Assembly: GCA_964347035.1 (NCBI GenBank)
Contig: CAYFXE010000001.1
Span: forward strand, 48,228 to 112,227
Direction: 5' to 3'
Source of the DNA: an uncultured Eubacteriales bacterium
GTDB taxonomy: Bacteria > Acidobacteriota > Aminicenantia > Aminicenantales > Aminicenantaceae
Length of the DNA: 64,000 nt
Below, piece by piece: positions 2,797-57,668 of this stretch (the first letter of the stretch is position 1; each line of letters opens with the position of its first letter). The notes under the pieces were generated by a model that ran no database searches, was not told the DNA's origin, and was given only the letters and a program-made list of their open reading frames with translations. The translations under genes and the position numbers were made by a program.

Positions 2797-4302
2797 ATGA
2801 AGAGAAAGATAGGAATTTGCTTTAAACTTGTTCTTTTCCTGACCGTCATCCTGATTCTCACCTCCTCCCTACTCGCTCAGACTTTCGAGGCGATCAAAAA
2901 CAAAATCAAGGTCCATACTTTGAAGAACGGGATGAAATTCATCGTGCTCGAACGACATGAAGCACCGGTCGTCTCTTTTCATGTCTATGCCGATGTCGGA
3001 AGCGCCAATGAGACTTATGGGATAACCGGGATTTCCCATCTTCTGGAACACATGGCTTTCAAAGGCACCAAGATTGTGGGGACAAAAGACTACGAAGCAG
3101 AGATGAAAGTGCTCGAAGAGCTGGACACCTTGTATGACCAGATAAAGAGGGAAGAGGACCAGGTCAAGCCTGATGCCCAGAAGCTCGAGGAGATGAAGAC
3201 AAGATTTGAGGAATTGCGCCTGAAGGCTAAAGAGTTCGTGGCGACCAATGAATTTATCGATCTGATGAGAAGACAAGGAGATCAACGAATCAACGCCTAC
3301 ACCAGCAATGATGCCACCCAATACATAGACAGCCTGCCTTCGAACAAACTGGAATACTGGATGGCCATGACTTCGGATCGCTTTCTCAATCCTGTTTTTC
3401 GGGAATTCTACAAGGAAAGAGATGTTGTCATGGAAGAGAGAAGACTCGGGTTAGAGACGAGGCCTATGGGAAAACTCATAGAAGATTTCTTTGCTACGGC
3501 TTTTAAAGCCCATCCCTATCACCATACGGTCATCGGTCATATGTCAGACTTGAGAAAAATTACCCGCCAGGATGTCGAGGATTATTTCAAGACATACTAT
3601 GGACCGAGCAATTTAACAGTGGGGATAGTCGGTGATGTTGCCGCCGACGAGGTCTTTAAACTGGCTGACATCTATTTTGAGCGGATTCCGAGCGGTCCGA
3701 AACCAGAGCCTGTCCGGACAGAAGAACCCGAGCAATGGGGAGAAAGGCATGTCACGGTTACGGCCAGATCCCAGCCCATCCTCGTCGTTGGGTATCACCG
3801 TCCGAACGCTCGCCACCAAGATAATGCTGCCCTGGAGGCCTTAGCCAATATCATAGGTCAGGGGCGGTCCTCCAGGTTGTATCAGGTGATGGTCAAGGAG
3901 AAGAAAGTCGCCATCCAAACCGGGAGTTTCAACGGATTTCCAGGGGATAAGTTTCCCAATCTCATTGCCTTTTATGCGGTCTCTTCCTGGGGGCATAAAT
4001 CGGATGAATGCCTGGAAGTTATAGACGCGGAGATAGAAAAGATAAAGAAAGAGCCTGTCACACCCGAGGAACTCACAAAGTTCAAGAGAAGTGCTATCAA
4101 GAACCTGTTGAACCAGATGATATCCAATTCCCGTATGGCTGCGTTACTCACCTATGCCGAGGTCGTTCTTGGAGGTTTGGACGAGGCGTTTGATCAGATC
4201 AAGCAGATCGAAGCCATCACTGCCGAAGATGTCATGAGAGTGGCTAATACCTATTTGGTCAAGAAGAAGAGGACGGTCGGTGAGATTATTCCTGGAAAAT
4301 GA
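2797..4302 (+). CDS. M16 family zinc peptidase (insulinase-like, catalytic subunit), secreted
   Basis: Inverted zinc motif HLLEHMAFKG (HxxEH). Signal peptide follows the Met at 2797, which is preceded by an aggaggg RBS; the ORF-track start at 2728 looks like a spurious extension. Confidence 0.8.
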   Translation: MKRKIGICFKLVLFLTVILILTSSLLAQTFEAIKNKIKVHTLKNGMKFIVLERHEAPVVSFHVYADVGSANETYGITGISHLLEHMAFKGTKIVGTKDYEAEMKVLEELDTLYDQIKREEDQVKPDAQKLEEMKTRFEELRLKAKEFVATNEFIDLMRRQGDQRINAYTSNDATQYIDSLPSNKLEYWMAMTSDRFLNPVFREFYKERDVVMEERRLGLETRPMGKLIEDFFATAFKAHPYHHTVIGHMSDLRKITRQDVEDYFKTYYGPSNLTVGIVGDVAADEVFKLADIYFERIPSGPKPEPVRTEEPEQWGERHVTVTARSQPILVVGYHRPNARHQDNAALEALANIIGQGRSSRLYQVMVKEKKVAIQTGSFNGFPGDKFPNLIAFYAVSSWGHKSDECLEVIDAEIEKIKKEPVTPEELTKFKRSAIKNLLNQMISNSRMAALLTYAEVVLGGLDEAFDQIKQIEAITAEDVMRVANTYLVKKKRTVGEIIPGK

Positions 4303-11363: not shown

Positions 11364-13394
11364 ATGAGAAAAATTACACTCTTTTCCTTTTCTCTTTTGC
11401 TGATTCTTTCCTTTGCCGGACTTCAAGGGCAAGAGATATTCGTTGAAGCCAAGACAAAAGACGCTGCGAAAAAGGCCCTGCTCGAAAAATATGGAGAGTC
11501 ACAGCGATTCCGCGTAGAAAAAGGCGTTGACCAAGTCGCCTCACTCTGGAAAGAAGAGGATGGGACGCTAAAGGAATTTGAAGACTTCTGCCAACAGTAT
11601 TTTATCGGCTCTCCTGAGCTTCTGGATCTGAATTTCAGCAGGCTGGAAACAAGTTTTGAAGTCCTGAACGGGAACTTCACCAAGATGATCATCGATTTAA
11701 AGCGTCCTCTTGAGCTTGATTGGGGCAAGATTCTTCCCCTGGATATGGTGTTCGGGCAGTTTAATCCCTCGTCGCACCTGATAGAAGACCTTTTTGCGAA
11801 TACAGTCGCGTTTTTTGTCCTCCTGAACTTTCCTCATTATTCCCTGGCAGAAAAGACCGAGTTGAGCCCAAAATGGAGCCGTAAAGACTGGGCCTACGCC
11901 AGGATGGGAGATGCATTCATCTCGAGAGTTCCCGCGCATGTCTTCCAGAAAATATCCCAGGTCATGACAGCAGCAGATACGTATATTTCGGAATACAATA
12001 TATTCATGGGAAAACTCGTGGACGCTAAGATGAAAACCTACTTTCCAGAGCACCTCAAGCTCATCAGTCACTGGGGCATTAGGGATGAGTTGAAGTCCAG
12101 ATACAGCGATCCTGAGGGTTTTTTCAAGCAGAAGATGATCTACGAAGTCATGATGAGGATCATCAAACAGGAGATTCCAGAGATCGTGATCAACAACCCT
12201 GATTATCTCTGGGATCCCTTCGGGAACAAGGTCTATCAAGACGGAAAAGAAATCGAGGCCATAAGAGAACCGGATACCCGGTATAAGCATTTCATCCAGA
12301 CGTTTAAAGGAATGAAGATGATCGATCTCTACTACCCTTCACTGCCGACCCATATCAAGAGAAGGTTCGAGGAAAACCGGGAAATACCGGAGGCAGAAGT
12401 TGAAGCTCTGTTCACAAGCTTTATTTCGTCACCTCAAGTCCGGAAAGTCGGAGAACTTATCAGCCGGCGGCTGGGGAGGAAGCTGGAACCCTTCGATATT
12501 TGGTATACGGGGTTTAGGTCCGGAAGTTCGATTCCTGAGGAGAAACTGGACAAGATAGTGGCTGAGAGGTATCCAACCGCGGAAGCCCTCCAGAAAGACT
12601 TGAAGAATATCTTGATGAAACTGGGATTTTCCCAGGATCAAGCCGATTTCATCGCTCCCAAGATTGTGGTGGATTCCTCGAGAGGTGTGGGACATGCCTA
12701 CGGAGCAGAGATGAAGTCGGATAAGTCACGCTTGAGGACCAGAGTCCCTAAGACAGGAATGAAGTATAAGGGATTCAACATCGCCATCCATGAATTTGGG
12801 CACTGTGTGGAGCAGACTCTCACCCTCCAGAAGGTTGACCACTATATGCTTCGCGGCGTTCCCAACACAGCCTTTACCGAGGCTTTTGCTTTTGTTTTCC
12901 AGGAAAAAGATCTTGATATTTTGGGGATCAAAACTGAAGATCCCCACAGGAGACACCTGAAGGCCCTCGATGATTTCTGGAATGCCTATGAAATCATGGG
13001 TGTATCTTTGGTGGATATGAAGGCTTGGAACTGGCTTTACGATCACCCCGAGGCCACCCCTGCTGAACTGAAGGAGGCGGTCATCTCCATCGCAAAGAAC
13101 ATATGGAACAAATATTATGCCGACGTTTTCGGAGTCAAGGATCAGCCTATTCTCGCCATTTATTCCCATATGATTGATGCCGCCCTGTATCTTCCTGATT
13201 ACCCTCTCGGACACGTTATCGCCTTCCAGATTCATCAATACCTTGAAGGAAAGAGTCTTGGTGAAGAGATGGAAAGGATGTGTGTGGCCGGGAATATCAT
13301 CCCCCAGGCCTGGATGCAGAATGCCGTCGGCTCAAAGATTTCGTCCAGGATGCTGCTCGATGCCGTGGACGAAGCCTTGGAGCATATGAAGTAG
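11364..13394 (+). CDS. Secreted zinc metallopeptidase, HExxH gluzincin (M3/M32-like)
   Basis: Signal peptide plus the HEFGHCVEQ motif; 676 aa. Confidence 0.5.
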   Translation: MRKITLFSFSLLLILSFAGLQGQEIFVEAKTKDAAKKALLEKYGESQRFRVEKGVDQVASLWKEEDGTLKEFEDFCQQYFIGSPELLDLNFSRLETSFEVLNGNFTKMIIDLKRPLELDWGKILPLDMVFGQFNPSSHLIEDLFANTVAFFVLLNFPHYSLAEKTELSPKWSRKDWAYARMGDAFISRVPAHVFQKISQVMTAADTYISEYNIFMGKLVDAKMKTYFPEHLKLISHWGIRDELKSRYSDPEGFFKQKMIYEVMMRIIKQEIPEIVINNPDYLWDPFGNKVYQDGKEIEAIREPDTRYKHFIQTFKGMKMIDLYYPSLPTHIKRRFEENREIPEAEVEALFTSFISSPQVRKVGELISRRLGRKLEPFDIWYTGFRSGSSIPEEKLDKIVAERYPTAEALQKDLKNILMKLGFSQDQADFIAPKIVVDSSRGVGHAYGAEMKSDKSRLRTRVPKTGMKYKGFNIAIHEFGHCVEQTLTLQKVDHYMLRGVPNTAFTEAFAFVFQEKDLDILGIKTEDPHRRHLKALDDFWNAYEIMGVSLVDMKAWNWLYDHPEATPAELKEAVISIAKNIWNKYYADVFGVKDQPILAIYSHMIDAALYLPDYPLGHVIAFQIHQYLEGKSLGEEMERMCVAGNIIPQAWMQNAVGSKISSRMLLDAVDEALEHMK

Positions 13395-18192: not shown

Positions 18193-18249
18193 GGTAAATT
18201 ATGTGACATAGTAATTTAAGAAATTGTTTTTCTCAAGTCAATAGATATT

Positions 18250-18340
18250 GCTGCTGGGGTCAGGCCTTATCCCAAGGTTTTGTACTCGGGTAAAAGTAGA
18301 GACAGAGCGCTTCTGGACGACAAGGCCTGACCCCAGCAGC
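18250..18340. repeat. ~91 bp intergenic element with perfect 19 bp terminal inverted repeats (copy A), MITE/REP-like
   Basis: gctgctggggtcaggcctt ...53 bp... aaggcctgaccccagcagc. A second copy at 50770..50858 carries the internal segment in reverse-complement orientation. Confidence 0.75.
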
Positions 18341-18368
18341 AACCGAGAAGGTCAGATGGATTTTTGAA

Positions 18369-49032: not shown

Positions 49033-50667
49033 ATGATGAAAATTTATGTTCTGTCAAAAAAGCTAGAAAAATTTATCCCTTTATTTCTCCTTTTATTCCT
49101 TGCCGGTTTCTTCTTCATGTTTTCACCCAGTAGCCAAGATAAGCCCCTCTTTCTGGAAGAAGAATCGGGCTGTACAAGCATCCAGGTTGGACGACTGGCG
49201 AGCGCGGACGGTTCAGTGATTACATGTCATTCCTGCGATGGGAATTATCGGACATGGCTCAACATGGTTCCTCCCGCCCAACATTTTGCAGGATCGAAGA
49301 ATAAAATCTACTACGGGAAGATGAAGAGTGAGACTTCGTGGGATCTCAGAGGTTTAGTGGAAAGGGGGGAAATTCCCCAGGTCGAGGAAACCTATGCCTT
49401 CCTCAACGTCGCCTATCCCTGCCTGAACGAACATCAGCTGGCCATCGGTGAAACCACTATCCGCGGCCGAAGGGAACTTCGCAACGACCGGGGACTGTTC
49501 ATGATCGAGGAGCTGGAGCGGATTATGCTGGAGAGATGCACCACAGCTCGACAAGCCATACGACTGGCCGGTGAGCTTGTTAAGAATTACGGATACGGGG
49601 ATAACGGAGAATGTCTGACCATCGCTGATCCGAAGGAAGTCTGGCATTTTGAAATCTTCGGTGCAGGGCTTCGAGAAATAGGGGCTGTTTGGGCCGCTGT
49701 CCGAATTCCCGATGACCATGTCGGCGTTTCGGCAAATATCCCTCGAATTGGAGAATTGAATCTAGACGATCCCGATCATTATATGGCTTCGGAAAACGTG
49801 TTTTCGCTGGCTGAAGAAAGAGGATGGTGGGATCCTAAAAGCGGGGAGCCGTTTAAATTCTGGAAGGCTTATGATGGACGAAAGCCTTTTGGAATAAGGG
49901 AATATTTCGTATTCAAAACACTTGCTCCTTCCTTAAAATTGGACGAAGATGCCGAAGAACTGCCGTTTTCCATAAAACCGGATAAGAAGGTATCGGTGAG
50001 GGATGTGATGAAGTTGTACCGGGAGACATACGCGGGTACAAAGTACGACATGACCCAGAATTTGATGGTCAAGGAACGCCGAGGAACCGAGATAGTCAAA
50101 AGCCCGATAGCCCACCCTTGGATGTCCTACGATTTGAGGACCCTTCTCAACACGCTGAAGCCGGGGGTGGTGGAATATCAGCGGAAGATCGCCATCGCCG
50201 GGTGCGCTTATTCTCACATCACCCAATGCCGGGATTGGTTGCCCGATCCTGTGGGTGGGATCTGCTGGTTCGCTTTTGATAATCCGGGTCAGAGTGCCAG
50301 AATCCCGATTTTCGCTGGAGTCAAAGAGCTCCCTCAGGATTTCGAGGTCTGTGCTCAACACAGGTTTCGCACGGATTCTGCCTGCTGGGCTTTCCGGAGG
50401 GCCAATCGCCTTTCTACTGTCCGCTGGGGAGAGGCAGGAACATACATCCAAGAGGCCATTAAAGAGTTTGAAGAAAAGGCCTTTGCTGACCTTCCTCTTA
50501 TCGAGAAGAAAGCTCTGGAGCTGTATAAAAACGCAAATCCTGGAGAGAGCCCGGATCAGCTCGTTGAATACTTGACCAAGTACACAAACGATTTTGCCCG
50601 GGCCGCTATGCATAAATACTGGGAGCTCGGGGATAAGTTCTGGACGATGTTCGCCCGAGGGTTTTAA
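49033..50667 (+). CDS. C69-family (dipeptidase A-like) Ntn-hydrolase peptidase, secreted
   Basis: After the signal peptide, GCTSIQVGRLASADGSVI matches the C69 N-terminal nucleophile motif CT(T/S)ILVGKKASADGS. Confidence 0.65.
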   Translation: MMKIYVLSKKLEKFIPLFLLLFLAGFFFMFSPSSQDKPLFLEEESGCTSIQVGRLASADGSVITCHSCDGNYRTWLNMVPPAQHFAGSKNKIYYGKMKSETSWDLRGLVERGEIPQVEETYAFLNVAYPCLNEHQLAIGETTIRGRRELRNDRGLFMIEELERIMLERCTTARQAIRLAGELVKNYGYGDNGECLTIADPKEVWHFEIFGAGLREIGAVWAAVRIPDDHVGVSANIPRIGELNLDDPDHYMASENVFSLAEERGWWDPKSGEPFKFWKAYDGRKPFGIREYFVFKTLAPSLKLDEDAEELPFSIKPDKKVSVRDVMKLYRETYAGTKYDMTQNLMVKERRGTEIVKSPIAHPWMSYDLRTLLNTLKPGVVEYQRKIAIAGCAYSHITQCRDWLPDPVGGICWFAFDNPGQSARIPIFAGVKELPQDFEVCAQHRFRTDSACWAFRRANRLSTVRWGEAGTYIQEAIKEFEEKAFADLPLIEKKALELYKNANPGESPDQLVEYLTKYTNDFARAAMHKYWELGDKFWTMFARGF

Positions 50668-50769
50668 AGCCCGAATATTTTAGAAAAGGATTATCAAGAG
50701 TAAAATATACGAAAATAGCTTTGCTTCCTTCAGATTTTTAACGCCATTCCCTCATCGTCTATCTCGGCT

Positions 50770-50858
50770 GCTGCTGGGGTCAGGCCTTGTCGTCCGGAAG
50801 CGCTGTGTCTCTGCCTTTACCCGAGTACAAAACTTTGGGATAAGGCCTGACCCCAGCT
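50770..50858. repeat. Copy B of the ~90 bp TIR element (inverted internal orientation relative to copy A)
   Basis: gctgctggggtcaggcctt ... aaggcctgaccccagc. The internal 53 bp is roughly the reverse complement of copy A's internal segment. Confidence 0.75.
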
Positions 50859-50983
50859 CAGACATACTCGCAGGTCGACTTCGTCGACTACCCTCGAAGG
50901 CCGAAATCTGAAGGCTGGGTTAGGTTGGGTCGGGGTTTTCAATGTCGCTTCATCTATTTCCGTATATTTTACTACATAAAATT

Positions 50984-51511
50984 TTAAGGCTGATTTTTTC
51001 GTTTTAATCTGTTCAAAGCATAGCAGCTGAATCCCTTATCCGGCCAGGCCACGTGGAAGCTCTGCTCCAGATCATCGGGCTTGATGATTTTAAATATCAG
51101 CTTGGCTTTCGTTCCTGGTGGAGCATTCTCGATATGCTCAGTGACGAAGGCGAGAGTTTTTCCGTTATCAGAAATGGTATCGAGGATATACGTGTTAACA
51201 AACCCTTCCACATAGAATCCCCTAAGGACGAATTTATTCCTGATCTGATCGTAACTGAACAGCCCCAGATCCTCATGAACCTCCCCCTCAGGCCTCTTCT
51301 CGCTGGGCTCGAAGACAGCCTTGGTGTTCATCTGGAGGAATTTCTTGTTTAGGACGAACCGGTATTCTTGATTCACGACTGATCCTTGACCATGGCCCTC
51401 CCATCGCCCTTCTAAGAATTCAAGAGGCTCCCAGACATCCTTTTTTTTCTCTGTTTGGGCAATGATCATGGCAGGCAATAAAAAAAGGATGACAACGAGT
51501 TTATGGCTCAT
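50984..51511 (-). CDS. Secreted hypothetical protein (lipocalin/DUF-like)
   Basis: Signal peptide; 175 aa; no catalytic motif recognised. Confidence 0.4.
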   Translation of the reverse strand: MSHKLVVILFLLPAMIIAQTEKKKDVWEPLEFLEGRWEGHGQGSVVNQEYRFVLNKKFLQMNTKAVFEPSEKRPEGEVHEDLGLFSYDQIRNKFVLRGFYVEGFVNTYILDTISDNGKTLAFVTEHIENAPPGTKAKLIFKIIKPDDLEQSFHVAWPDKGFSCYALNRLKRKNQP

Positions 51512-51741
51512 GATGTGTCTCCTTTCTCATGACCGGTTATTGTATATCAAATCATAAGCTCATTCCAGAGAGGAAAAGGAAACCCGTTCGTCAGGAAAAA
51601 ACCAAGATTTATCCCTAAAGTTAATTCTAGCTGTGTAGCCACTGTTTAAGATTTAGAGTATTATAATGCAAAAAATATCATGGATAGCTTTTTATCGTTA
51701 AAATGCTGGTCAATGGTTAAAAATACAAAACGGCCTCAATC

Positions 51742-52802
51742 TTGATTATGATGAACAGCGCTGATCGATCTCCACCTAAGGGCTTGTTGGCTCGGTTAAG
51801 GTTCGTCGGCCCAGGAATCATCCTGGCTGCGGCCGCTATCGGCTCTGGAGAATTGATCCTCACACCCAGGGCAGGGGCTCTATACGGACTGTCAATTGCC
51901 TGGGTCATCGTCATCTCCATCCTGTATAAGATGACGTTCACCTTCGGCCTGGCTCGTTATACTATCGCCACAGGAGAGGATATCTTCCAGGGTTTTTCCC
52001 GTCTCCCCGGGCCCCGCCTTTGGTTTGTTTGGGTGCTGAGTCTGGTCAGACTATTGTCAGTCTGCTCGGCTGGACGGCTGGGGGAGCCTCGACATTGATC
52101 TACAGCTTTTGGATACTGGAGAAAGGCATGGGACTCGGTGCCAAAGACAGAGGATCCCTCGTCGAGAGAAGAAGCTCACCAAGAATCATCAATAAAGTGA
52201 ATACCTGGCTATCTCTCATCTGGCTGGATGTTGGCTTGTCCTATTTCTTGATGATCGTTGTCTCGCTGGCATTCTTGACCATAGGGGTGTTGGTACTGAG
52301 GACAGCTGGTCCGGAAGGGGGTCCTTTGGTCCCGGCCAGGGAAGAAACCACTTCTATCCTGTCCCGGCTTTTGACCGAAGCAGCCGGCCCTCAGGCCCGA
52401 TATATTTTCCTTTTAGCAGCCTTGGCCATTCTTTTCTCGACAATCATCGGGATGGTTGACGGCAAATCCAGGGCACTTCGGACTGGAATCAGGATGATTC
52501 TAGCAAGGTCCAGACGAGTCTCTGATGTGAATATCTACAGGCTGTTTGTGACATTGATGTGTTGTGTCATCTTTGCATTTCTCTTTACAGGGAAGCCCGT
52601 AGTACTCATCGTTTTGATCTCGGCTCTTGAGGCTCCGATGCTCTCCTTATCTGCCATCATGCTGGCTTACCTCCTCTTTAGAAAACTGCCGAAGGCCCTC
52701 CGTCCGGGTCTCGGGTGGCTTCTGGTCATGGCCATCGGGACCGCCATTTATCTGGCCTTATCAAGCATAGTGTTCGTCCGGATTCTGATTCAGATGTTTT
52801 AG
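51742..52802 (+). pseudogene. NRAMP-family divalent metal transporter homolog with an apparent +1 frameshift near 52034..52046
   Basis: ORF 51742..52098 (FVGPGIILAAAAIGSGELILTPRAGALYGLSIAWV...) and ORF 52020..52802 (LGAESGQTIVSLLG..., many TM helices) together make one NRAMP-like protein. They are in different frames. Confidence 0.55.
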
Positions 52803-52859
52803 ATGAATGGATCATGTTTTGTGAAAATTTGTCCGTGTTATTCGTCCTATTAAACGCCT

Positions 52860-53597
52860 ATGGAACATCGCATTTCAAAGAAATGGAATCCACGCCTACA
52901 CGATTCATCCGGCCACAGGCTGAGGCTCAGGGAGAAATTTTTATTAGGGGGGCTCAAAGGGTTTTTGGATTATGAAATCATCGAACTGCTGTTGACACTG
53001 GGGACTCCACGAAGAGACTGCAAGAGGCAAGCGAAAGAAGCGTTGAGAAGATTCAAGACATTGAGAAGTGTTCTGGAGGCGGAGCCAGAGAACCTTCAGG
53101 ACATCAAAGGCATAGGTCCTCAAAATATATTCGGGATTAAGCTCGTTCAAGAGGTCTCCCGGCGTTTCCTAAAAGATCGTATGATGAGCCGGCCTGTCTG
53201 TCAAACCTCTAAGGACGTCTTTGAATATCTCTATCACGCCCTGAGAGACGCAAAGAGAGAAAAATTTAAGGTCATGTTTCTGGATGCCAAGAACAGGATC
53301 ATCGAGGAGAACACTTTTTTCGAGGGGACAGTCGATTCGAGCGCTGTCTTTCCCCGAGAAATCATGAAAGCAGCCCTAAAGCACGATGCCTCTTCCCTGA
53401 TCTTCGTCCACAATCATCCGACTGGAGACCCTCAGCCTTCCTCGAGTGACAAGGAGATTACGAGGGAGTTGGTGTGGGCCGCCTCTCTTTTGCAGATCCG
53501 AGTCTTGGATCACATCATCATCGGGAATAACTGCTATTTCAGTTTCGCCGATCATGGCTTGATTGAGGATTATGCTTTGGTGTTCCAGAAGAATTAA
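52860..53597 (+). CDS. radC: RadC-like JAB/MPN domain protein
   Basis: HhH-like N-terminus (GHRLRLREKF...YEIIELLLTLG) and JAMM motif HNHPTGDPQPSSSD. Confidence 0.8.
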   Translation: MEHRISKKWNPRLHDSSGHRLRLREKFLLGGLKGFLDYEIIELLLTLGTPRRDCKRQAKEALRRFKTLRSVLEAEPENLQDIKGIGPQNIFGIKLVQEVSRRFLKDRMMSRPVCQTSKDVFEYLYHALRDAKREKFKVMFLDAKNRIIEENTFFEGTVDSSAVFPREIMKAALKHDASSLIFVHNHPTGDPQPSSSDKEITRELVWAASLLQIRVLDHIIIGNNCYFSFADHGLIEDYALVFQKN

Positions 53598-53600
53598 GAT

Positions 53601-53727
53601 TCAGTTATCAGTTCACAGATATCAGTTCCCAGTTATCAGTACACAGTTGAAGAAGAGATTCTTATCTTGATAAGAATCCCTTTTTTGCTGACAACTGACA
53701 ACTGGATACTGGCAACTGATAACTGAA
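53601..53727. repeat. Palindromic array: 3 direct 12-15 bp units (cagWtatcagtt) + central hairpin + 3 inverted units
   Basis: Left arm units at 53603, 53617 and 53632. The right arm (53692..53725) holds their reverse complements (aactgataactg etc.), flanking the palindrome gattcttatcttgataagaatc. Confidence 0.6.
53657..53686 (+). terminator. Intrinsic terminator downstream of radC
   Basis: Perfect 10 bp stem gattcttatc/gataagaatc with a 2 nt loop, followed by ccTTTTTT. Confidence 0.6.
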
Positions 53728-53779
53728 TTATTGTCAAATCTAATTTCCGAGGGTAAACTCTTAGCGAGAGGAGGCCACT

Positions 53780-55450
53780 ATGATAGACGATATGGATATC
53801 GATATGAAGGTCAAAATGAAGCCCATCGAGGATATCGCGGGTCGGCTGGGAATTGATTCCACAGATCTGGAGAAATACGGAAAGTATAAAGCGAAGGTTT
53901 CTCCCGACAAGTATCGTGGACAGAAGATAAGAGGGAAACTGATCATGGTCACAGCCATGACACCCACTCCAGCCGGAGAGGGCAAGACAACAACATCTAT
54001 CGGCCTGACCGATGCCTTTAACCGGATCGGAAAAAATGCAGTGACCGCATTGAGGGAGCCATCCCTGGGACCCGTGTTCGGTATGAAAGGCGGAGCCACA
54101 GGAGGCGGGTATGCTCAGGTCATGCCCCGGGAGGAAATAAACCTCCATTTCACAGGGGATATCCATGCCGTCACAGCGGCCCATAATCTTTTGGCCGCGA
54201 TGGTCGATAACAGCCTTCATTTCGAGGGTGTCTGTGGCCTGCTAGATTGCCGGAGGGTGACCTGGAAAAGAGTCATGGATATGGATGACCGTGTGTTGCG
54301 GGAAGTTGTCGTCGGTATCGGAGGGCCTCTCCGCGGCATAGCCCGGGAAACAGGGTTTGACATAACGGCTGCCTCCGAGATCATGGCCATCCTGTGTTTG
54401 GCACAAAATTTAGAGGATTTGAAGGAGAGATTGGGCAATATTCTTGTCGGTTATTCTCCAGAAAGAAAGCCAGTTTTTGCTCGGGACCTAAAAGCTGAAG
54501 GATCGATGGCTGCCCTTCTTAAGGAAGCCTTCAAACCCAACCTTGTTCAGACTTTGGAGGGCAACCCGGTGTTTATACACGGTGGGCCTTTTGCTAATAT
54601 CGCCCACGGGACGAGCTCAGTGATCGCCACTCAGTTGGCCCTGTCTCTGGCAGACGTGGTGGTCACGGAAAGTGGTTTTGGCTCTGACCTCGGTGCTGAG
54701 AAGTTTTTCGATATCGTCGTCAGGACCGGACATATACCTCCGCCTGATGCCTGTGTTCTAGTAGCGACCATCCGGGCTTTGAAGCTTCATGGTGGCGTCA
54801 AACTAAAGGAGATCGGCCCGGAGAACGTCGAGGCTGTCGAGCAGGGCTTTGTGAATCTCCAGAAGCACATCGAAAACCTCAGGGGCTTCGGGATCCCTTT
54901 CGTCATCGCCTTGAACAGATTCTCGGATGATACCGAGAAGGAAATCGACAGAGTCATGGATTTATGCCGGAAGGAGAAGGCTCGAGTGGCCCTCAGCGAA
55001 GTCTACGGCAAGGGGGGACAAGGGGGAAGGATGTTGGCTGAAGAATTGCTCAAGGCTATCGACGAGGATGAAAACAATTTTCAACTTCTCTACCCAGACG
55101 AGATGTCCCTCCTGGACAAGATCGAAACCGTCGCCCTCCAGGTTTACGGCGCCTCTTCGGTGGCGATGGAAGGAAAAATAAGGAGAAGAATCCTTCGGAT
55201 CGAGAAAGAGGGCTTCGGTCATCTTCCTGTCTGTATCGCCAAAACCCAGTATTCTCTTTCTGGAGATGATGAGGCCTTGGGAAGGCCCGAGGATTTCGCC
55301 CTCATCGTTACCGATGCCTCGTTGAGCTCTGGAGCCGGGTTTGTCGTGGTCTACTGCGGAGATATCATGACCATGCCAGGACTGCCCAAGATTCCGGCTG
55401 CTGTTGGCATCGACGTCTCGGCTGAAGGAGAAATCACCGGTTTGAAGTAA
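53780..55450 (+). CDS. fhs: Formate--tetrahydrofolate ligase
   Basis: P-loop TPTPAGEGKTTT..., 556 aa, FTHFS architecture. Confidence 0.9.
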   Translation: MIDDMDIDMKVKMKPIEDIAGRLGIDSTDLEKYGKYKAKVSPDKYRGQKIRGKLIMVTAMTPTPAGEGKTTTSIGLTDAFNRIGKNAVTALREPSLGPVFGMKGGATGGGYAQVMPREEINLHFTGDIHAVTAAHNLLAAMVDNSLHFEGVCGLLDCRRVTWKRVMDMDDRVLREVVVGIGGPLRGIARETGFDITAASEIMAILCLAQNLEDLKERLGNILVGYSPERKPVFARDLKAEGSMAALLKEAFKPNLVQTLEGNPVFIHGGPFANIAHGTSSVIATQLALSLADVVVTESGFGSDLGAEKFFDIVVRTGHIPPPDACVLVATIRALKLHGGVKLKEIGPENVEAVEQGFVNLQKHIENLRGFGIPFVIALNRFSDDTEKEIDRVMDLCRKEKARVALSEVYGKGGQGGRMLAEELLKAIDEDENNFQLLYPDEMSLLDKIETVALQVYGASSVAMEGKIRRRILRIEKEGFGHLPVCIAKTQYSLSGDDEALGRPEDFALIVTDASLSSGAGFVVVYCGDIMTMPGLPKIPAAVGIDVSAEGEITGLK

Positions 55451-55609
55451 AAAATAGTAACTGGCTACTGTATTTAGCATCAAAAATGCAGCTCTTTTTC
55501 CTCAAAATCCGGAGAGACGAGATGTCCCGAATATAGGTTTACACTCTCTGTTAATTGTGATAAAAAGGATGTGTTTTTTTTAAAAAAATTTTTTCGTGAG
55601 GTCTGATAA

Positions 55610-56800
55610 ATGTGCGAGTTAAGAGACGTTTTCGTCGTCGGTGCGGCGCGCACGCCTATCGGCAGTTTCCTGGGTTCTCTTCGCCAGTTCACCGCTCCGG
55701 AATTAGGCGGAATCGCTATCAAGGAAGCTCTTAAACGGGCAGGCGTTTCGGGAGAAGATGTTGATGAAGTGATCATGGGGAATGTTGTCTCAGCCGGTAT
55801 AGGCCAAGCGCCGGCTAAGCAAGCCGCAGTTAAAGGGGGAATTCCCTACACAGTAAGTTCCTTTGCCGTGAACAAGGTGTGCGGATCAGCGCTCAAGGCT
55901 GTCGCCCTGGCCGCTCAAGCCATCTGGCTGGAAGAGAAGGAGATCATCGTGGCCGGCGGGATGGAGAGCATGAGCCAAGCGCCTCATCTGCTGTGGGGCG
56001 CTAGAGAAGGTGTCAAGTTCGGAGACATGAAGATGAAAGACTCGATGATCCTGGACGGCTTGTGGTGTGCCTTCGATGACCATCACATGGGGATGACAGG
56101 TGAGGTCGTCGCCGAGAAATTCGGCGCCAGCCGGCAGGAACAGGATGAATATGCTTTTAGTAGTCAACAGAAAGCTATCCATGCCATCGATAAGGGCTAT
56201 TTCAAGGATGAGATTGTCCCGATCGAAATCCCGCAGAGAAAAGGAGACCCGATTGTATTCGACGTCGACGAAGGGCCTCGCAAGGATACGACTTTAGAGA
56301 AATTATCAAAACTGAGGCCCGTTTTCAAGAAAGATGGGACGGTGACAGCCGGGAATGCGTCTACTTTAAATGACGGAGGTTCAGCCGTTGTGGTTGCATC
56401 GAAGGATGCCGTTGAGGGGAAGGGCCTTAAACCTTTGGCTAAGATATTGGGTTCAGCCACCAACGCCGTGGAGCCAGAGCTGGTGATGTATGCTCCTAAA
56501 GGAGCTATAGAAAAACTGTTGGCCAACGTGGGCTGGAAAACTGAAGATGTCGATTTGTTCGAAATAAATGAAGCTTTTTCTTCCCAGTTGGTCGTTCTCA
56601 TCAAAGAGTTGGGCCTAGATAGAGAAAGAGTCAATGTCCATGGAGGAGCCGTGGCCTTGGGACATCCCATCGGAGCCACCGGAGCCCGGATCTTGACCAC
56701 ACTTATTTATGCCTTAAAACACAGAGACATGAAAAGGGGAGTGTCCGCTCTCTGCTTGGGTGGAGGCGATGCCGTGGCCATGGCTGTGGAGATGGTCTGA
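55610..56800 (+). CDS. Acetyl-CoA C-acetyltransferase (thiolase II)
   Basis: Active-site Cys in VNKVCGSAL; C-terminal GHPIGATGAR and CLGGGDAVAM thiolase signatures. Confidence 0.9.
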   Translation: MCELRDVFVVGAARTPIGSFLGSLRQFTAPELGGIAIKEALKRAGVSGEDVDEVIMGNVVSAGIGQAPAKQAAVKGGIPYTVSSFAVNKVCGSALKAVALAAQAIWLEEKEIIVAGGMESMSQAPHLLWGAREGVKFGDMKMKDSMILDGLWCAFDDHHMGMTGEVVAEKFGASRQEQDEYAFSSQQKAIHAIDKGYFKDEIVPIEIPQRKGDPIVFDVDEGPRKDTTLEKLSKLRPVFKKDGTVTAGNASTLNDGGSAVVVASKDAVEGKGLKPLAKILGSATNAVEPELVMYAPKGAIEKLLANVGWKTEDVDLFEINEAFSSQLVVLIKELGLDRERVNVHGGAVALGHPIGATGARILTTLIYALKHRDMKRGVSALCLGGGDAVAMAVEMV

Positions 56801-56810
56801 GGGAGGAGGA

Positions 56811-57668
56811 ATGATGGATATTAAAAAAATCGGTGTGGTCGGAGCCGGAACAATGGGGACAGGTATTGCCCAAGTGGCGGCTGTCGCGGGATTTGACGTG
56901 GTGCTTAACGATGTGGGAGATGAATTCCTCGAGAAATCGCTAAAAATCATAGACAAGAGTCTGTCCAAGCTCATCGAGAAAGGAAAAATCGAAGCTGATA
57001 AGGAAGAGATCCTCGGCCGGATAAAAACCACGACTGTGCTCGAAGAACTCAGAGATGTTGATTTTGTGGTGGAAGCCGTGTTCGAGGATTTTAACTTGAA
57101 AAAGAATATCCTCCAGGAACTGGATAAAATTCTCGATCCCGGAGTCATCCTCACCACCAATACCTCCTCGATCTCGATCACTCGGCTGGCCGCTGCGACG
57201 AAGCGTGCCTCCAATTTTATGGGTATGCATTTCATGAATCCTGTTCCGTTGATGAAGCTGGTGGAATTGATCAAGGTGGTTGCCACATCTGAAGAAACGT
57301 TCGAGAAGGTCAGAGCCTTAACCGAAGCGATGGAAAAAGTCCCTGTGGAGGCCAATGATTTTCCGGGGTTTATTGCCAACCGCATCCTGCTGCCGATGAT
57401 CAATGAAGCGGTCTACGTTTTGATGGAGGGTGTCGGATCGGCGGAGGATATCGACACAGTCATGAAGTTGGGGATGAACCATCCGATGGGTCCCCTGGCC
57501 TTGGCGGATCTCATCGGGTTGGATGTCTGTCTCCACATCATGGAGGTCCTGTACGAAGGATTCGGAGATTCCAAATACAGACCCTGTCCTCTTCTCAAAA
57601 AGATGGTAGATGCTGGTTATCTCGGCCGAAAATCAGGCCAGGGTTTCTATGATTACAGTTCTCAGTAA
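56811..57668 (+). CDS. 3-hydroxyacyl-CoA (3-hydroxybutyryl-CoA) dehydrogenase
   Basis: Rossmann motif IGVVGAGTMGTGIAQ, 3HCDH N- and C-terminal domains. Start placed at MMDIKKIG after a gggaggagg RBS. Confidence 0.85.
   Translation: MMDIKKIGVVGAGTMGTGIAQVAAVAGFDVVLNDVGDEFLEKSLKIIDKSLSKLIEKGKIEADKEEILGRIKTTTVLEELRDVDFVVEAVFEDFNLKKNILQELDKILDPGVILTTNTSSISITRLAAATKRASNFMGMHFMNPVPLMKLVELIKVVATSEETFEKVRALTEAMEKVPVEANDFPGFIANRILLPMINEAVYVLMEGVGSAEDIDTVMKLGMNHPMGPLALADLIGLDVCLHIMEVLYEGFGDSKYRPCPLLKKMVDAGYLGRKSGQGFYDYSSQ

Follow-up and report, generated by a model that had tools for sequence, protein, structure and literature searches.

Arrays of short repeated units have been described in the intergenic spacers of several groups of bacteria. 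[quoted passage not shown] The TAACTGA direct repeats, also with a 7-nt unit, are found in marine Beggiatoaceae and in some Cyanobacteria and Bacteroidetes (MacGregor 2015, PMC4679880). Here we describe an element of about 130 bp, with arms of tandem 7-nt repeats, that lies between radC and fhs at a chromosomal locus in a 64-kb stretch of DNA (hereafter the window) from an uncultured member of Candidatus Aminicenantes (OP8).

The element resembles the cyanobacterial STRR hairpins, such as those in the hupS-hupL spacer and upstream of hoxW, in its 7-bp units, its intergenic position and the placement of the hairpin near the 3′ end of the upstream gene. With 7 + 6 units beginning 4 nt past the radC stop codon and a folding energy of -56.7 kcal/mol, it corresponds to a spacer hairpin of the STRR type as defined in PMC2670836. 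It departs from that definition in its host, an Aminicenantes bacterium rather than a cyanobacterium, and in the absence of other arrays from the window, STRRs forming many dispersed arrays. Further differences are that the element and its kin occupy two spacers rather than hundreds of loci, that the units are degenerate and that relatives carry an 8-nt variant. The STRR1 (CCCCAGT) and STRR3 (CAACAGT) units of Mazel et al. 1990 reportedly share a CAGT core, and STRRs reportedly lengthen helix P12 of RNase P RNA (Vioque 1997).

Around 170 sets of TAACTGA repeats are present in BOGUAY, made of exact units and mostly situated directly upstream of start codons, where they replace the Shine-Dalgarno sequence (PMC4679880). 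Only one inverted repeat has been reported among them, some sets (‘split’ ones) have a related 7-mer or two between exact units, 7-nt indels distinguish close strains and a post-transcriptional role has been proposed (PMC4679880). The element described here has the identical consensus on the opposite strand, is likewise intergenic and split by related 7-mers, shows 7-nt indels and runs forward toward the downstream gene. Unlike the TAACTGA sets, however, it is a degenerate inverted pair around a likely terminator, sits upstream of a promoter and is without a second example in the 64 kb.

Imperfect palindromes in spacers at the 3′ ends of genes, varying in presence between close relatives, are also typical of the REP/BIME, REPIN, ERIC and Correia elements, of which REP, ERIC and Correia elements affect mRNA stability or termination. 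These differ from the present element in having tens to hundreds of dispersed, conserved copies and no tandem-repeat arms, and REPINs have a partner RAYT transposase. A REPIN is described as two REP sequences in inverted orientation, able to fold into a hairpin when the DNA is single-stranded or in mRNA (PMC3116915).

Anatomy of the repeat hairpin

The radC stop codon (TAA) is at 53595-53597 and the repeat element begins 4 nt beyond it. Its parts are given below; coordinates are positions in the window, and L-numbers denote retrieved loci of relatives or viral contigs.

53601-53649, + strand: left arm, seven tandem heptamers (sequence, Tandem Repeats Finder (TRF) at period 7 and period 14, repeat search)
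53650-53687, + strand: central AT-rich hairpin, likely a weak intrinsic terminator of radC (fold, L104/L105 homologue)
53688-53729, + strand: right arm, six heptamers in the opposite orientation (sequence, TRF)
53599-53613, no strand assigned: outer left 15 nt, ATTCAGTTATCAGTT, 15/15 complementary to 53714-53728 (blastn self-match)
53714-53728, no strand assigned: outer right 15 nt, AACTGATAACTGAAT, a perfect inverted copy of 53599-53613 (blastn self-match)

The units of the left arm read, in order, TCAGTTA, TCAGTTC, ACAGATA, TCAGTTC, CCAGTTA, TCAGTAC and ACAGTTG, with CAG invariant. Those of the right arm read CTGACAA, CTGACAA, CTGGATA, CTGGCAA, CTGATAA and CTGAATT or, in the other register, CAACTGA ... 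TAACTGA. TRF returns a period of 7 for both arms, with the consensus TCAGTTA on the left (69% matches) and CTGACAA on the right (78%). Summed up around their CAGT core, the left-arm units give TCAGTTA and the right-arm units the complement, TAACTGA, and the whole forms an imperfect palindrome. Exact units are few: TCAGTTA occurs once (53601-53607), as does TAACTGA (53719-53725), and neither arm contains an exact doublet. One base separates the right arm from the -35 box of the fhs promoter.

A secondary period of 14 nt is present in the left arm and outscores the 7-nt period in TRF (3.4 copies, 84% matches), the corresponding double units lying at 53602, 53616 and 53630 in the repeat search. 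A preliminary description of this DNA had reported three units of about 12-14 nt; the double period that it had picked up is real, whereas the true unit is 7 nt and the unit starts were misplaced by 1-2 nt. The same description had placed inverted repeats around a perfect 10-bp stem and T6 at the end of radC, between radC and fhs, which the sequence bears out, and had failed to recognise a motif that can now be named as the reverse complement of the TAACTGA heptamer (MacGregor 2015, PMC4679880).

The repeat search pairs the two arms over 41 nt with 78% complementarity. Allowing at most one mismatch, the motif CAGTTNNCAGTT occurs 13 times in the window and 10 of the 13 matches are at the radC-fhs locus; over 100 shuffled sequences the count averaged 3.2 and peaked at 11, none reaching 13, and the repetition exceeds chance. 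A search for the motif beyond the locus, as had been proposed, was negative: TRF finds no second period-7 array of this kind in the 64-kb window, and CAGTTNNCAGTT is absent from 0.82 Mb of relatives’ radC loci.

Folding and possible termination

At the centre of the element, GATTCTTATC (53657-53666) pairs with GATAAGAATC (53669-53678) in a perfect 10-bp stem closed by a TT loop and followed by CC and then T6 at 53681-53686. The stem can be extended by pairing of AAGAAGAG with CCCUUUUUU. On its own this hairpin, which has few G-C pairs, folds at -14.3 kcal/mol (z = -4.2). Judged as a terminator, its stem lies about 60 nt past the stop codon and is AT-rich rather than G+C-rich, and the U-tract can pair with AAGAAG. 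A homologous central hairpin, plus CCCTTTTT, is present in L104/L105.

The preliminary description had suggested that the region might fold into one long imperfect hairpin, and this is what folding gives: 53595-53735 forms a single hairpin (-56.7 kcal/mol and z = -8.5 as RNA; -29.9 kcal/mol and z = -7.2 as DNA) and 0 of 200 shuffles fold as well. The antisense RNA folds as well as the sense RNA or slightly better, indicating that the symmetry belongs to the DNA palindrome rather than to the transcribed strand. There is accordingly no G-U signature, and selection for pairing on the transcribed strand finds no support. Nor does the element match a known RNA family: Rfam gives nothing at gathering score in the window, and for 53400-53900 only chance-level matches (E >= 0.17).

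Spacer states in related genomes

Relatives were identified via RadC and Fhs homologues, yielding a genus-level clade of ten sequences including the window. Among about 45 orthologous spacers, repeat arrays behind radC are confined to this one clade, and a tandem-array score singles out the window and L088 only. Within the clade the radC 3′ spacer exists in four states: a heptamer hairpin, an octamer hairpin, an ordinary terminator and a collapsed remnant.

The heptamer hairpin is found in the window (7 + 6 units) and in L104/L105 (about 5 + 4). The two versions are clearly homologous: both contain the 17-mer CAGTTCCCAGTTATCAG as well as CCCTTTTT, and their AT-rich centres are alike. The elements of the window and L104 are 82% identical, compared with 84% for the flanking genes; they are separated by gaps of 7, 7 and 17 nt, each arm in the window being about two units longer, and the L104 array likewise ends one base before the -35 box. 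Between L104 (196-315) and L105 (93-212), near-identical strains represented by Logan assemblies, only point changes in the right array are seen (ACTGACAACTGAAAA versus ACTGGCAAATGAAAA), suggesting that the arrays accumulate substitutions quickly too.

In L088 the hairpin is built of octamers, with 4 + 4 units and a folding energy of -56.4 kcal/mol (z = -10.5). Its left arm reads CAGTGACT CAGTAACT CAGTCACT CAGTAACT CAG, its centre AAAGAAAAGAAAAAAAATCTTATCTT and its right arm ACTGAGTG ACTGAGTC ACTGAGTT ACTGTGTT ACTGA. Every unit consists of the palindrome AGTNACT and an additional base, which is C on the left side of the hairpin and G on the other. A second spacer is also involved: in L082 and in L104/L105, an octamer element that aligns over its full length with that of L088 lies after the stop codon of fhs and ahead of its terminator, the window having AGTAACTGGCTACTG only at this position (55456-55470). 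All five clade elements have the centre motif AAGARGAG...TCTTAYYTT in common.

In L085, L086, L087 and L002 an ordinary terminator, AAAAAGGGACAGGC..GCCTGTCCCTTTTT, is followed by a single seed, for example GTCAGTTACTGAC in L085, and seeds or remnants occupy the same spot behind radC in all four. L082, the sister of the window (radC DNA 91% identical), has only AGTCACTCAGTCACTGACAC behind radC, without a terminator, with 34 nt at this position against 134 nt in the window. The spacer of L083 contains a degenerate remnant together with an insert of unrelated sequence. In all, what follows radC in L082 and four other genomes is either a remnant of 15-20 nt or an ordinary terminator.

A second hairpin of the form AAAAAGGGACAGGC-loop-GCCTGTCCCTTTTT, with the shape of a bidirectional terminator, recurs in the relatives, in the radC 3′ spacer of some and the fhs 3′ spacer of others, and is absent from the window. 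It is seen in L002 (2860-2895), L085 (843-910), L087 (1208-1243) and L083 (4682-4729), and also in L084, L100 and L101.

Beyond the two spacers that flank fhs, no such array was found in about 1 Mb of local sequence, including some 40 kb of further clade DNA, and across the ten clade genomes the element is confined to these two spacers. A scan of metagenomes with the clade fhs promoter pattern recovered only known loci (L096 = L001, L100 = L083 and L101 = L002) and unrelated matches. The element is not conserved: there are homologues in L104/L105 and L088, but it is absent from the sister L082 and from most of the orthologous spacers. Most relatives do carry only a simple terminator, which, together with a unit motif occurring nowhere else, the preliminary description would have taken as a sign of local duplication without function, but the homologous hairpins in L104/L105, L088 and the second spacer show that this was not a one-off local duplication.

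Similar repeats in other phyla and in viruses

Blastn searches with the element match single arms only, in plasmids of Microcystis, Nostoc, Fischerella and Brasilonema, in Bernardetia (formerly Flexibacter) and in the Microcystis phage Mic1, those in Microcystis, Nostoc, Fischerella, Bernardetia and the phage being matches to (TAACTGA)n arrays; one Microcystis plasmid has a 410-nt (TAACTGA)n array of uniform orientation. In IMG/VR, four consecutive copies of CAGTTNN occur in at least 120 contigs, about 0.1 chance matches being expected by a rough estimate of the size of the database, and the commonest units among the matches listed are CAGTTAT, CAGTTGT and CAGTTGC. Four copies of control cores are also frequent, with TGACTNN in at least 120 contigs and GTCTANN in 51, indicating that heptamer arrays as such are generic; the idea that CAGTT is a uniquely favoured heptamer is accordingly not supported. 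A further control, CTGAT, is not independent, being a rotation of the CAGTT repeat.

Arrays of octamers, (AGTNACTN)n with 3-12 units, occur in 42 IMG/VR contigs (L106-L147), so that the Aminicenantes are not alone in having the 8-nt unit seen in L088 and L082. L115 and L117 each have octamer arrays of opposite orientation on one contig.

Where CAG-core arrays occur as inverted pairs within 150 nt, they are ordered. Among the IMG/VR matches listed (L148-L267), a relaxed pattern finds 21 distinct pairs of the form (..CAG..)n-spacer-(..CTG..)n and none of the opposite form, and a strict pattern gives 6 to 0, again with the CAG arm first. The CTGAT set gives 13 to 0 in the same sense, while the control heptamers seldom pair (2:1 and 0:1). 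All five Aminicenantes elements also have the CAG arm first and the CTG arm second. As such a palindrome is identical on both strands, the direction of transcription cannot be the cause of this polarity. Some of the viral pairs wrap a G+C-rich terminator-like hairpin (L236, 2784-2872; L191, 9432-9482). The L210 pair (12356-12596) comprises 15 + 10 units, and a ribosome-binding site and ATG follow immediately after its right array; at 2950-3045 and 12529-12620 of this contig, long (CTGACAA/CTGGCAA)n arrays abut GAAAGGAGG-ATG, as in the start-codon arrangement of the Beggiatoaceae.

Proposed origin and possible effect of the element

Our preferred reading, to which we give a probability of roughly 0.55, is that the element is a dispensable, repeat-armed hairpin of the STRR/TAACTGA kind, situated around the likely radC terminator and built by replication slippage. 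The starting point would be a short palindromic seed, TCAGT-N-ACTGA, next to a terminator. From this the arms would lengthen and shorten in whole units through slippage, some process holding both arms roughly equal in length, and long versions would be apt to collapse through a deletion spanning the palindrome or to give way to an ordinary terminator. Slippage from a seed is suggested by the whole-unit indels between homologues, the existence of 7- and 8-nt variants, the seeds and remnants at the same site and the loss of the element from the sister genome with the promoter intact. Any function of the element would appear to be dispensable, amounting at most to a longer stem-loop at the radC 3′ end. 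Stronger termination, shielding of the fhs promoter from read-through and protection of the mRNA at its 3′ end are conceivable consequences, in keeping with proposals made for the STRR hairpins of cyanobacterial spacers, and the first two are the most plausible.

A number of points weigh against this reading. Complementarity of about 78% between the arms would be expected in any case of two arrays with a common 5/7 core. The L104 and L082 homologues fold only modestly (z = -2.0 to -3.4), implying that pairing is not strongly maintained. A consensus terminator scan calls no terminator at the weak central hairpin and, if termination does take place at the central T6, the right arm is not transcribed and the long RNA hairpin forms only upon read-through. 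The distribution of spacer states conflicts with the radC and fhs trees: the window and L082 are sisters with different states, and L104 and L085, 96% identical over the last 195 nt of radC, have a heptamer hairpin and an ordinary terminator, respectively. Slippage alone explains neither these tree-discordant alleles nor the equal arms nor the CAG-then-CTG polarity.

Alternative explanations

The element could instead be a neutral by-product, slippage-prone sequence tolerated in the spacer with no effect on radC or fhs. Its loss from most relatives without change to the flanking genes or promoter is what would be expected of such sequence, as is the existence of degenerate, weakly folding versions, and the IMG/VR counts show arrays of several cores to be common. 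It is harder to account in this way for arm lengths that are balanced in four of the five elements, for the strict polarity and for the fact that lineages with 84% identity have kept the element at one and the same locus, and we consider complete neutrality rather unlikely.

[quoted passage not shown] The perfect outer 15-nt inverted repeat is of the kind found at the termini of MITEs and REPINs, the boundaries of the element are abrupt against a promoter nearly identical in L082, and the window contains another small palindromic repeat in two copies. Two lines of evidence in particular keep weight on this explanation: the presence of the octamer element, its centres homologous, in two spacers (behind radC in L088 and behind fhs in L082 and L104), and the incongruence of the alleles with the gene trees, seen in the reciprocal presence and absence in sisters and in the entirely different spacers of L104 and L085. 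Dispersed copies, as MITEs and REPINs have, are however lacking: the ten clade genomes hold the element in two spacers only, both flanking fhs, with nothing else in about 1 Mb of local data and no copies in the other ~64 kb of the window, ~40 kb of clade DNA or ~0.9 Mb of other Aminicenantes loci. No target-site duplication or flanking direct repeat is seen at the locus, relatives that lack the element have seeds of its motif at this very site, which favours an origin in place, and the divergence between the window and L104 elements is close to that of the flanking genes (82% versus 84%), as for vertical descent. On balance, mobility of this kind is improbable.

More speculatively, hepta- and octamer arrays with a CAGT core might be made or kept by a directional, hairpin-linked process operating across distant phyla and phages. 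Such a process, which may be a repeat-extending or repeat-binding activity or involve a class of mobile ‘terminator cassettes’, would explain the CAG-then-CTG order, the equal arm lengths and the exchange of spacer alleles without regard to the flanking-gene tree. We hold it to be distinctly improbable.

It is very doubtful that the arrays are operators for a heptad-binding regulator of fhs, perhaps acting together with the array behind fhs. The omega repressor of plasmid pSM19035, a ribbon-helix-helix protein, recognises heptad operators of sequence WATCACW, binding direct and converging heptads well and diverging ones poorly. As with these operators, the units here are contiguous 7-bp repeats, both direct and converging, next to a promoter, with one base between array and -35 box in both the window and L104; arrays lie on both sides of fhs in L104, each L088 unit, AGTNACT with its central base free to vary, looks like a binding site of dyad symmetry, and inverted pairs are strictly oriented. 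Unlike the omega system, with its WATCACW sites, plasmid context and known partner protein, none of which is found here, the locus has units of the form NCAGTTN that do not match the omega consensus, and no DNA-binding Pfam family is present in the seven proteins encoded at 49033-57668. The arrays are missing from the sister and most relatives while the fhs promoter is unchanged, the unit length varies between 7 and 8 nt among relatives, and there are no further sites in the 64 kb. For the same reasons (34 nt in L082 against 134 nt in the window, the variable unit and the lack of other arrays in the window), the conserved multimeric DNA-binding platform envisaged in the preliminary description is unlikely.

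Membership of the TAACTGA-repeat system of the marine Beggiatoaceae would account for the TRF consensus TCAGTTA being the exact reverse complement of TAACTGA, for a right arm that reads (C/T)AACTGA, ‘forward’ toward fhs, and for blastn matches in Microcystis, Nostoc and Bernardetia (formerly Flexibacter), all taxa listed by MacGregor, while viral contig L210 provides arrays directly upstream of a ribosome-binding site and ATG. The right arm of our element, however, precedes the fhs promoter and ends 54 nt short of the ATG of a gene with the canonical ribosome-binding site GGAGG; together with the single exact TAACTGA or TCAGTTA in each arm, without an exact doublet, this rules against strict membership of the class. 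As for abundance, there is one set in 64 kb, and in ~40 kb of further clade DNA only that of the fhs 3′ spacer, against about one per 30 kb in the Beggiatoaceae genome, and the seeds of the relatives point to a local origin. Membership is thus very unlikely.

The remaining candidates can be set aside briefly. Plasmid iterons are likewise direct repeats able to bind several protein copies, but they measure 17-22 bp, have a rep gene and an AT-rich origin as neighbours and stay conserved among the replicons of one family; the ‘iteron-like’ label first given to this region does not survive, nor does a replication origin, in view of its 7-nt units, a conserved chromosomal synteny and radC-fhs spacer, no rep gene and no GC-skew switch. 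Ends of the Tc1/IS630 type (CAGT...ACTG flanked by TA) were dropped because no TA duplication is present, and an integron attC site because radC and fhs are core syntenic genes.

Genomic context

The features that surround the element are as follows.

52860-53597, + strand: radC, a RadC-like JAB domain protein of 245 aa (Pfam PF04002, E = 1.8e-45)
53731-53759, + strand: fhs promoter, sigma-70-like, TTGTCA, 17-nt spacer, TAAACT (promoter scan, conservation in orthologous spacers)
53770-53774, + strand: fhs ribosome-binding site GGAGG (sequence; kept in relatives)
53780-55450, + strand: fhs, formate--tetrahydrofolate ligase (Pfam PF01268, E = 5e-246)
55456-55470, + strand: AGTAACTGGCTACTG, likely a collapsed remnant of an 8-nt-unit hairpin (sequence; comparison with L082 and L104)

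The fhs ATG is at 53780, and the right arm stops upstream of the -35 box. In relatives from the clade the promoter reads TTGTCAAAT..GGTAAACTCTTA, and in more distant Aminicenantes TTGTAAAAT..GGTAAACT plus GGAGG. Across the radC-fhs spacers of L002-L081 the arrangement of TTGTAAAATC, about 13 nt, GGTAAACT and GGAGG is widely conserved while the sequence upstream is freely variable, placing the fhs promoter outside the repeat element. The corresponding spacers of L007, L011, L023 and L039 hold inserts of 300-1350 nt.

A RadC query retrieved 80 loci from species-representative genomes, all of them metagenome-assembled Aminicenantes/Acidobacteriota, with a best identity of 86%. In about 38 of the 80, fhs follows radC, usually across a spacer of 15-130 nt, and the neighbouring genes radC, fhs, thiolase and recA are syntenic with those of other Aminicenantes chromosomes. 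A 3.2-kb marine-sediment metagenome contig from the Gulfs of Kathiawar (L001, JABAOH010112696.1) is identical to the window. Across the element this contig is the same as the window, yet at 1704-2860 fhs is called as two genes, of 133 and 239 aa, and alignment of its Fhs with that of the window breaks between residues 126 and 149, indicating an indel or frameshift. The Fhs of a strain-level relative, P0122 (39-kb NCBI contig), is 98% identical to that of the window. The Pfam scan of the seven proteins at 49033-57668, with smaller open reading frames outside the scan, detected no rep-like gene and no DNA-binding family, and there is no GC-skew switch at the locus.

Two other features of the window may be mentioned. 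Upstream of radC, an Nramp transporter gene (51748-52799) is apparently disrupted: residues 1-90 and 190-444 of the L083/L082 orthologue align in two frames and about 100 residues are missing, so that this is either a pseudogene or an assembly error. An element of about 100 nt occurs both at 18240-18345 and at 50770-50860, the copies being inverted relative to each other and sharing roughly 90% identity; its ends form a 19-24-nt inverted repeat (GCTGGGGTCAGGCCTTRTC ... GAYAAGGCCTGACCCCAGC) separated by a 47-nt spacer; it looks like a small dispersed repeat of the MITE or REPIN type.

Concluding remarks

For the purposes of annotation, the repeats between radC and fhs should be labelled neither as an origin, nor as an iteron set, nor as a conserved operator. 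With this element, the range of STRR/TAACTGA-type heptamer arrays, and of the hairpins built from them, is extended to the Aminicenantes (OP8), an anaerobic sediment lineage far removed from the cyanobacteria, Beggiatoaceae and Bacteroidetes in which such arrays were described. A single locus shows, in a rare series, a seed, a 4 + 4 hairpin, a 7 + 6 hairpin, a variant with 8-nt units, a remnant left by collapse and the substitution of an ordinary terminator for the element. The rule of polarity, if it holds, counts against purely random slippage and offers a clue to the origin of these repeats.

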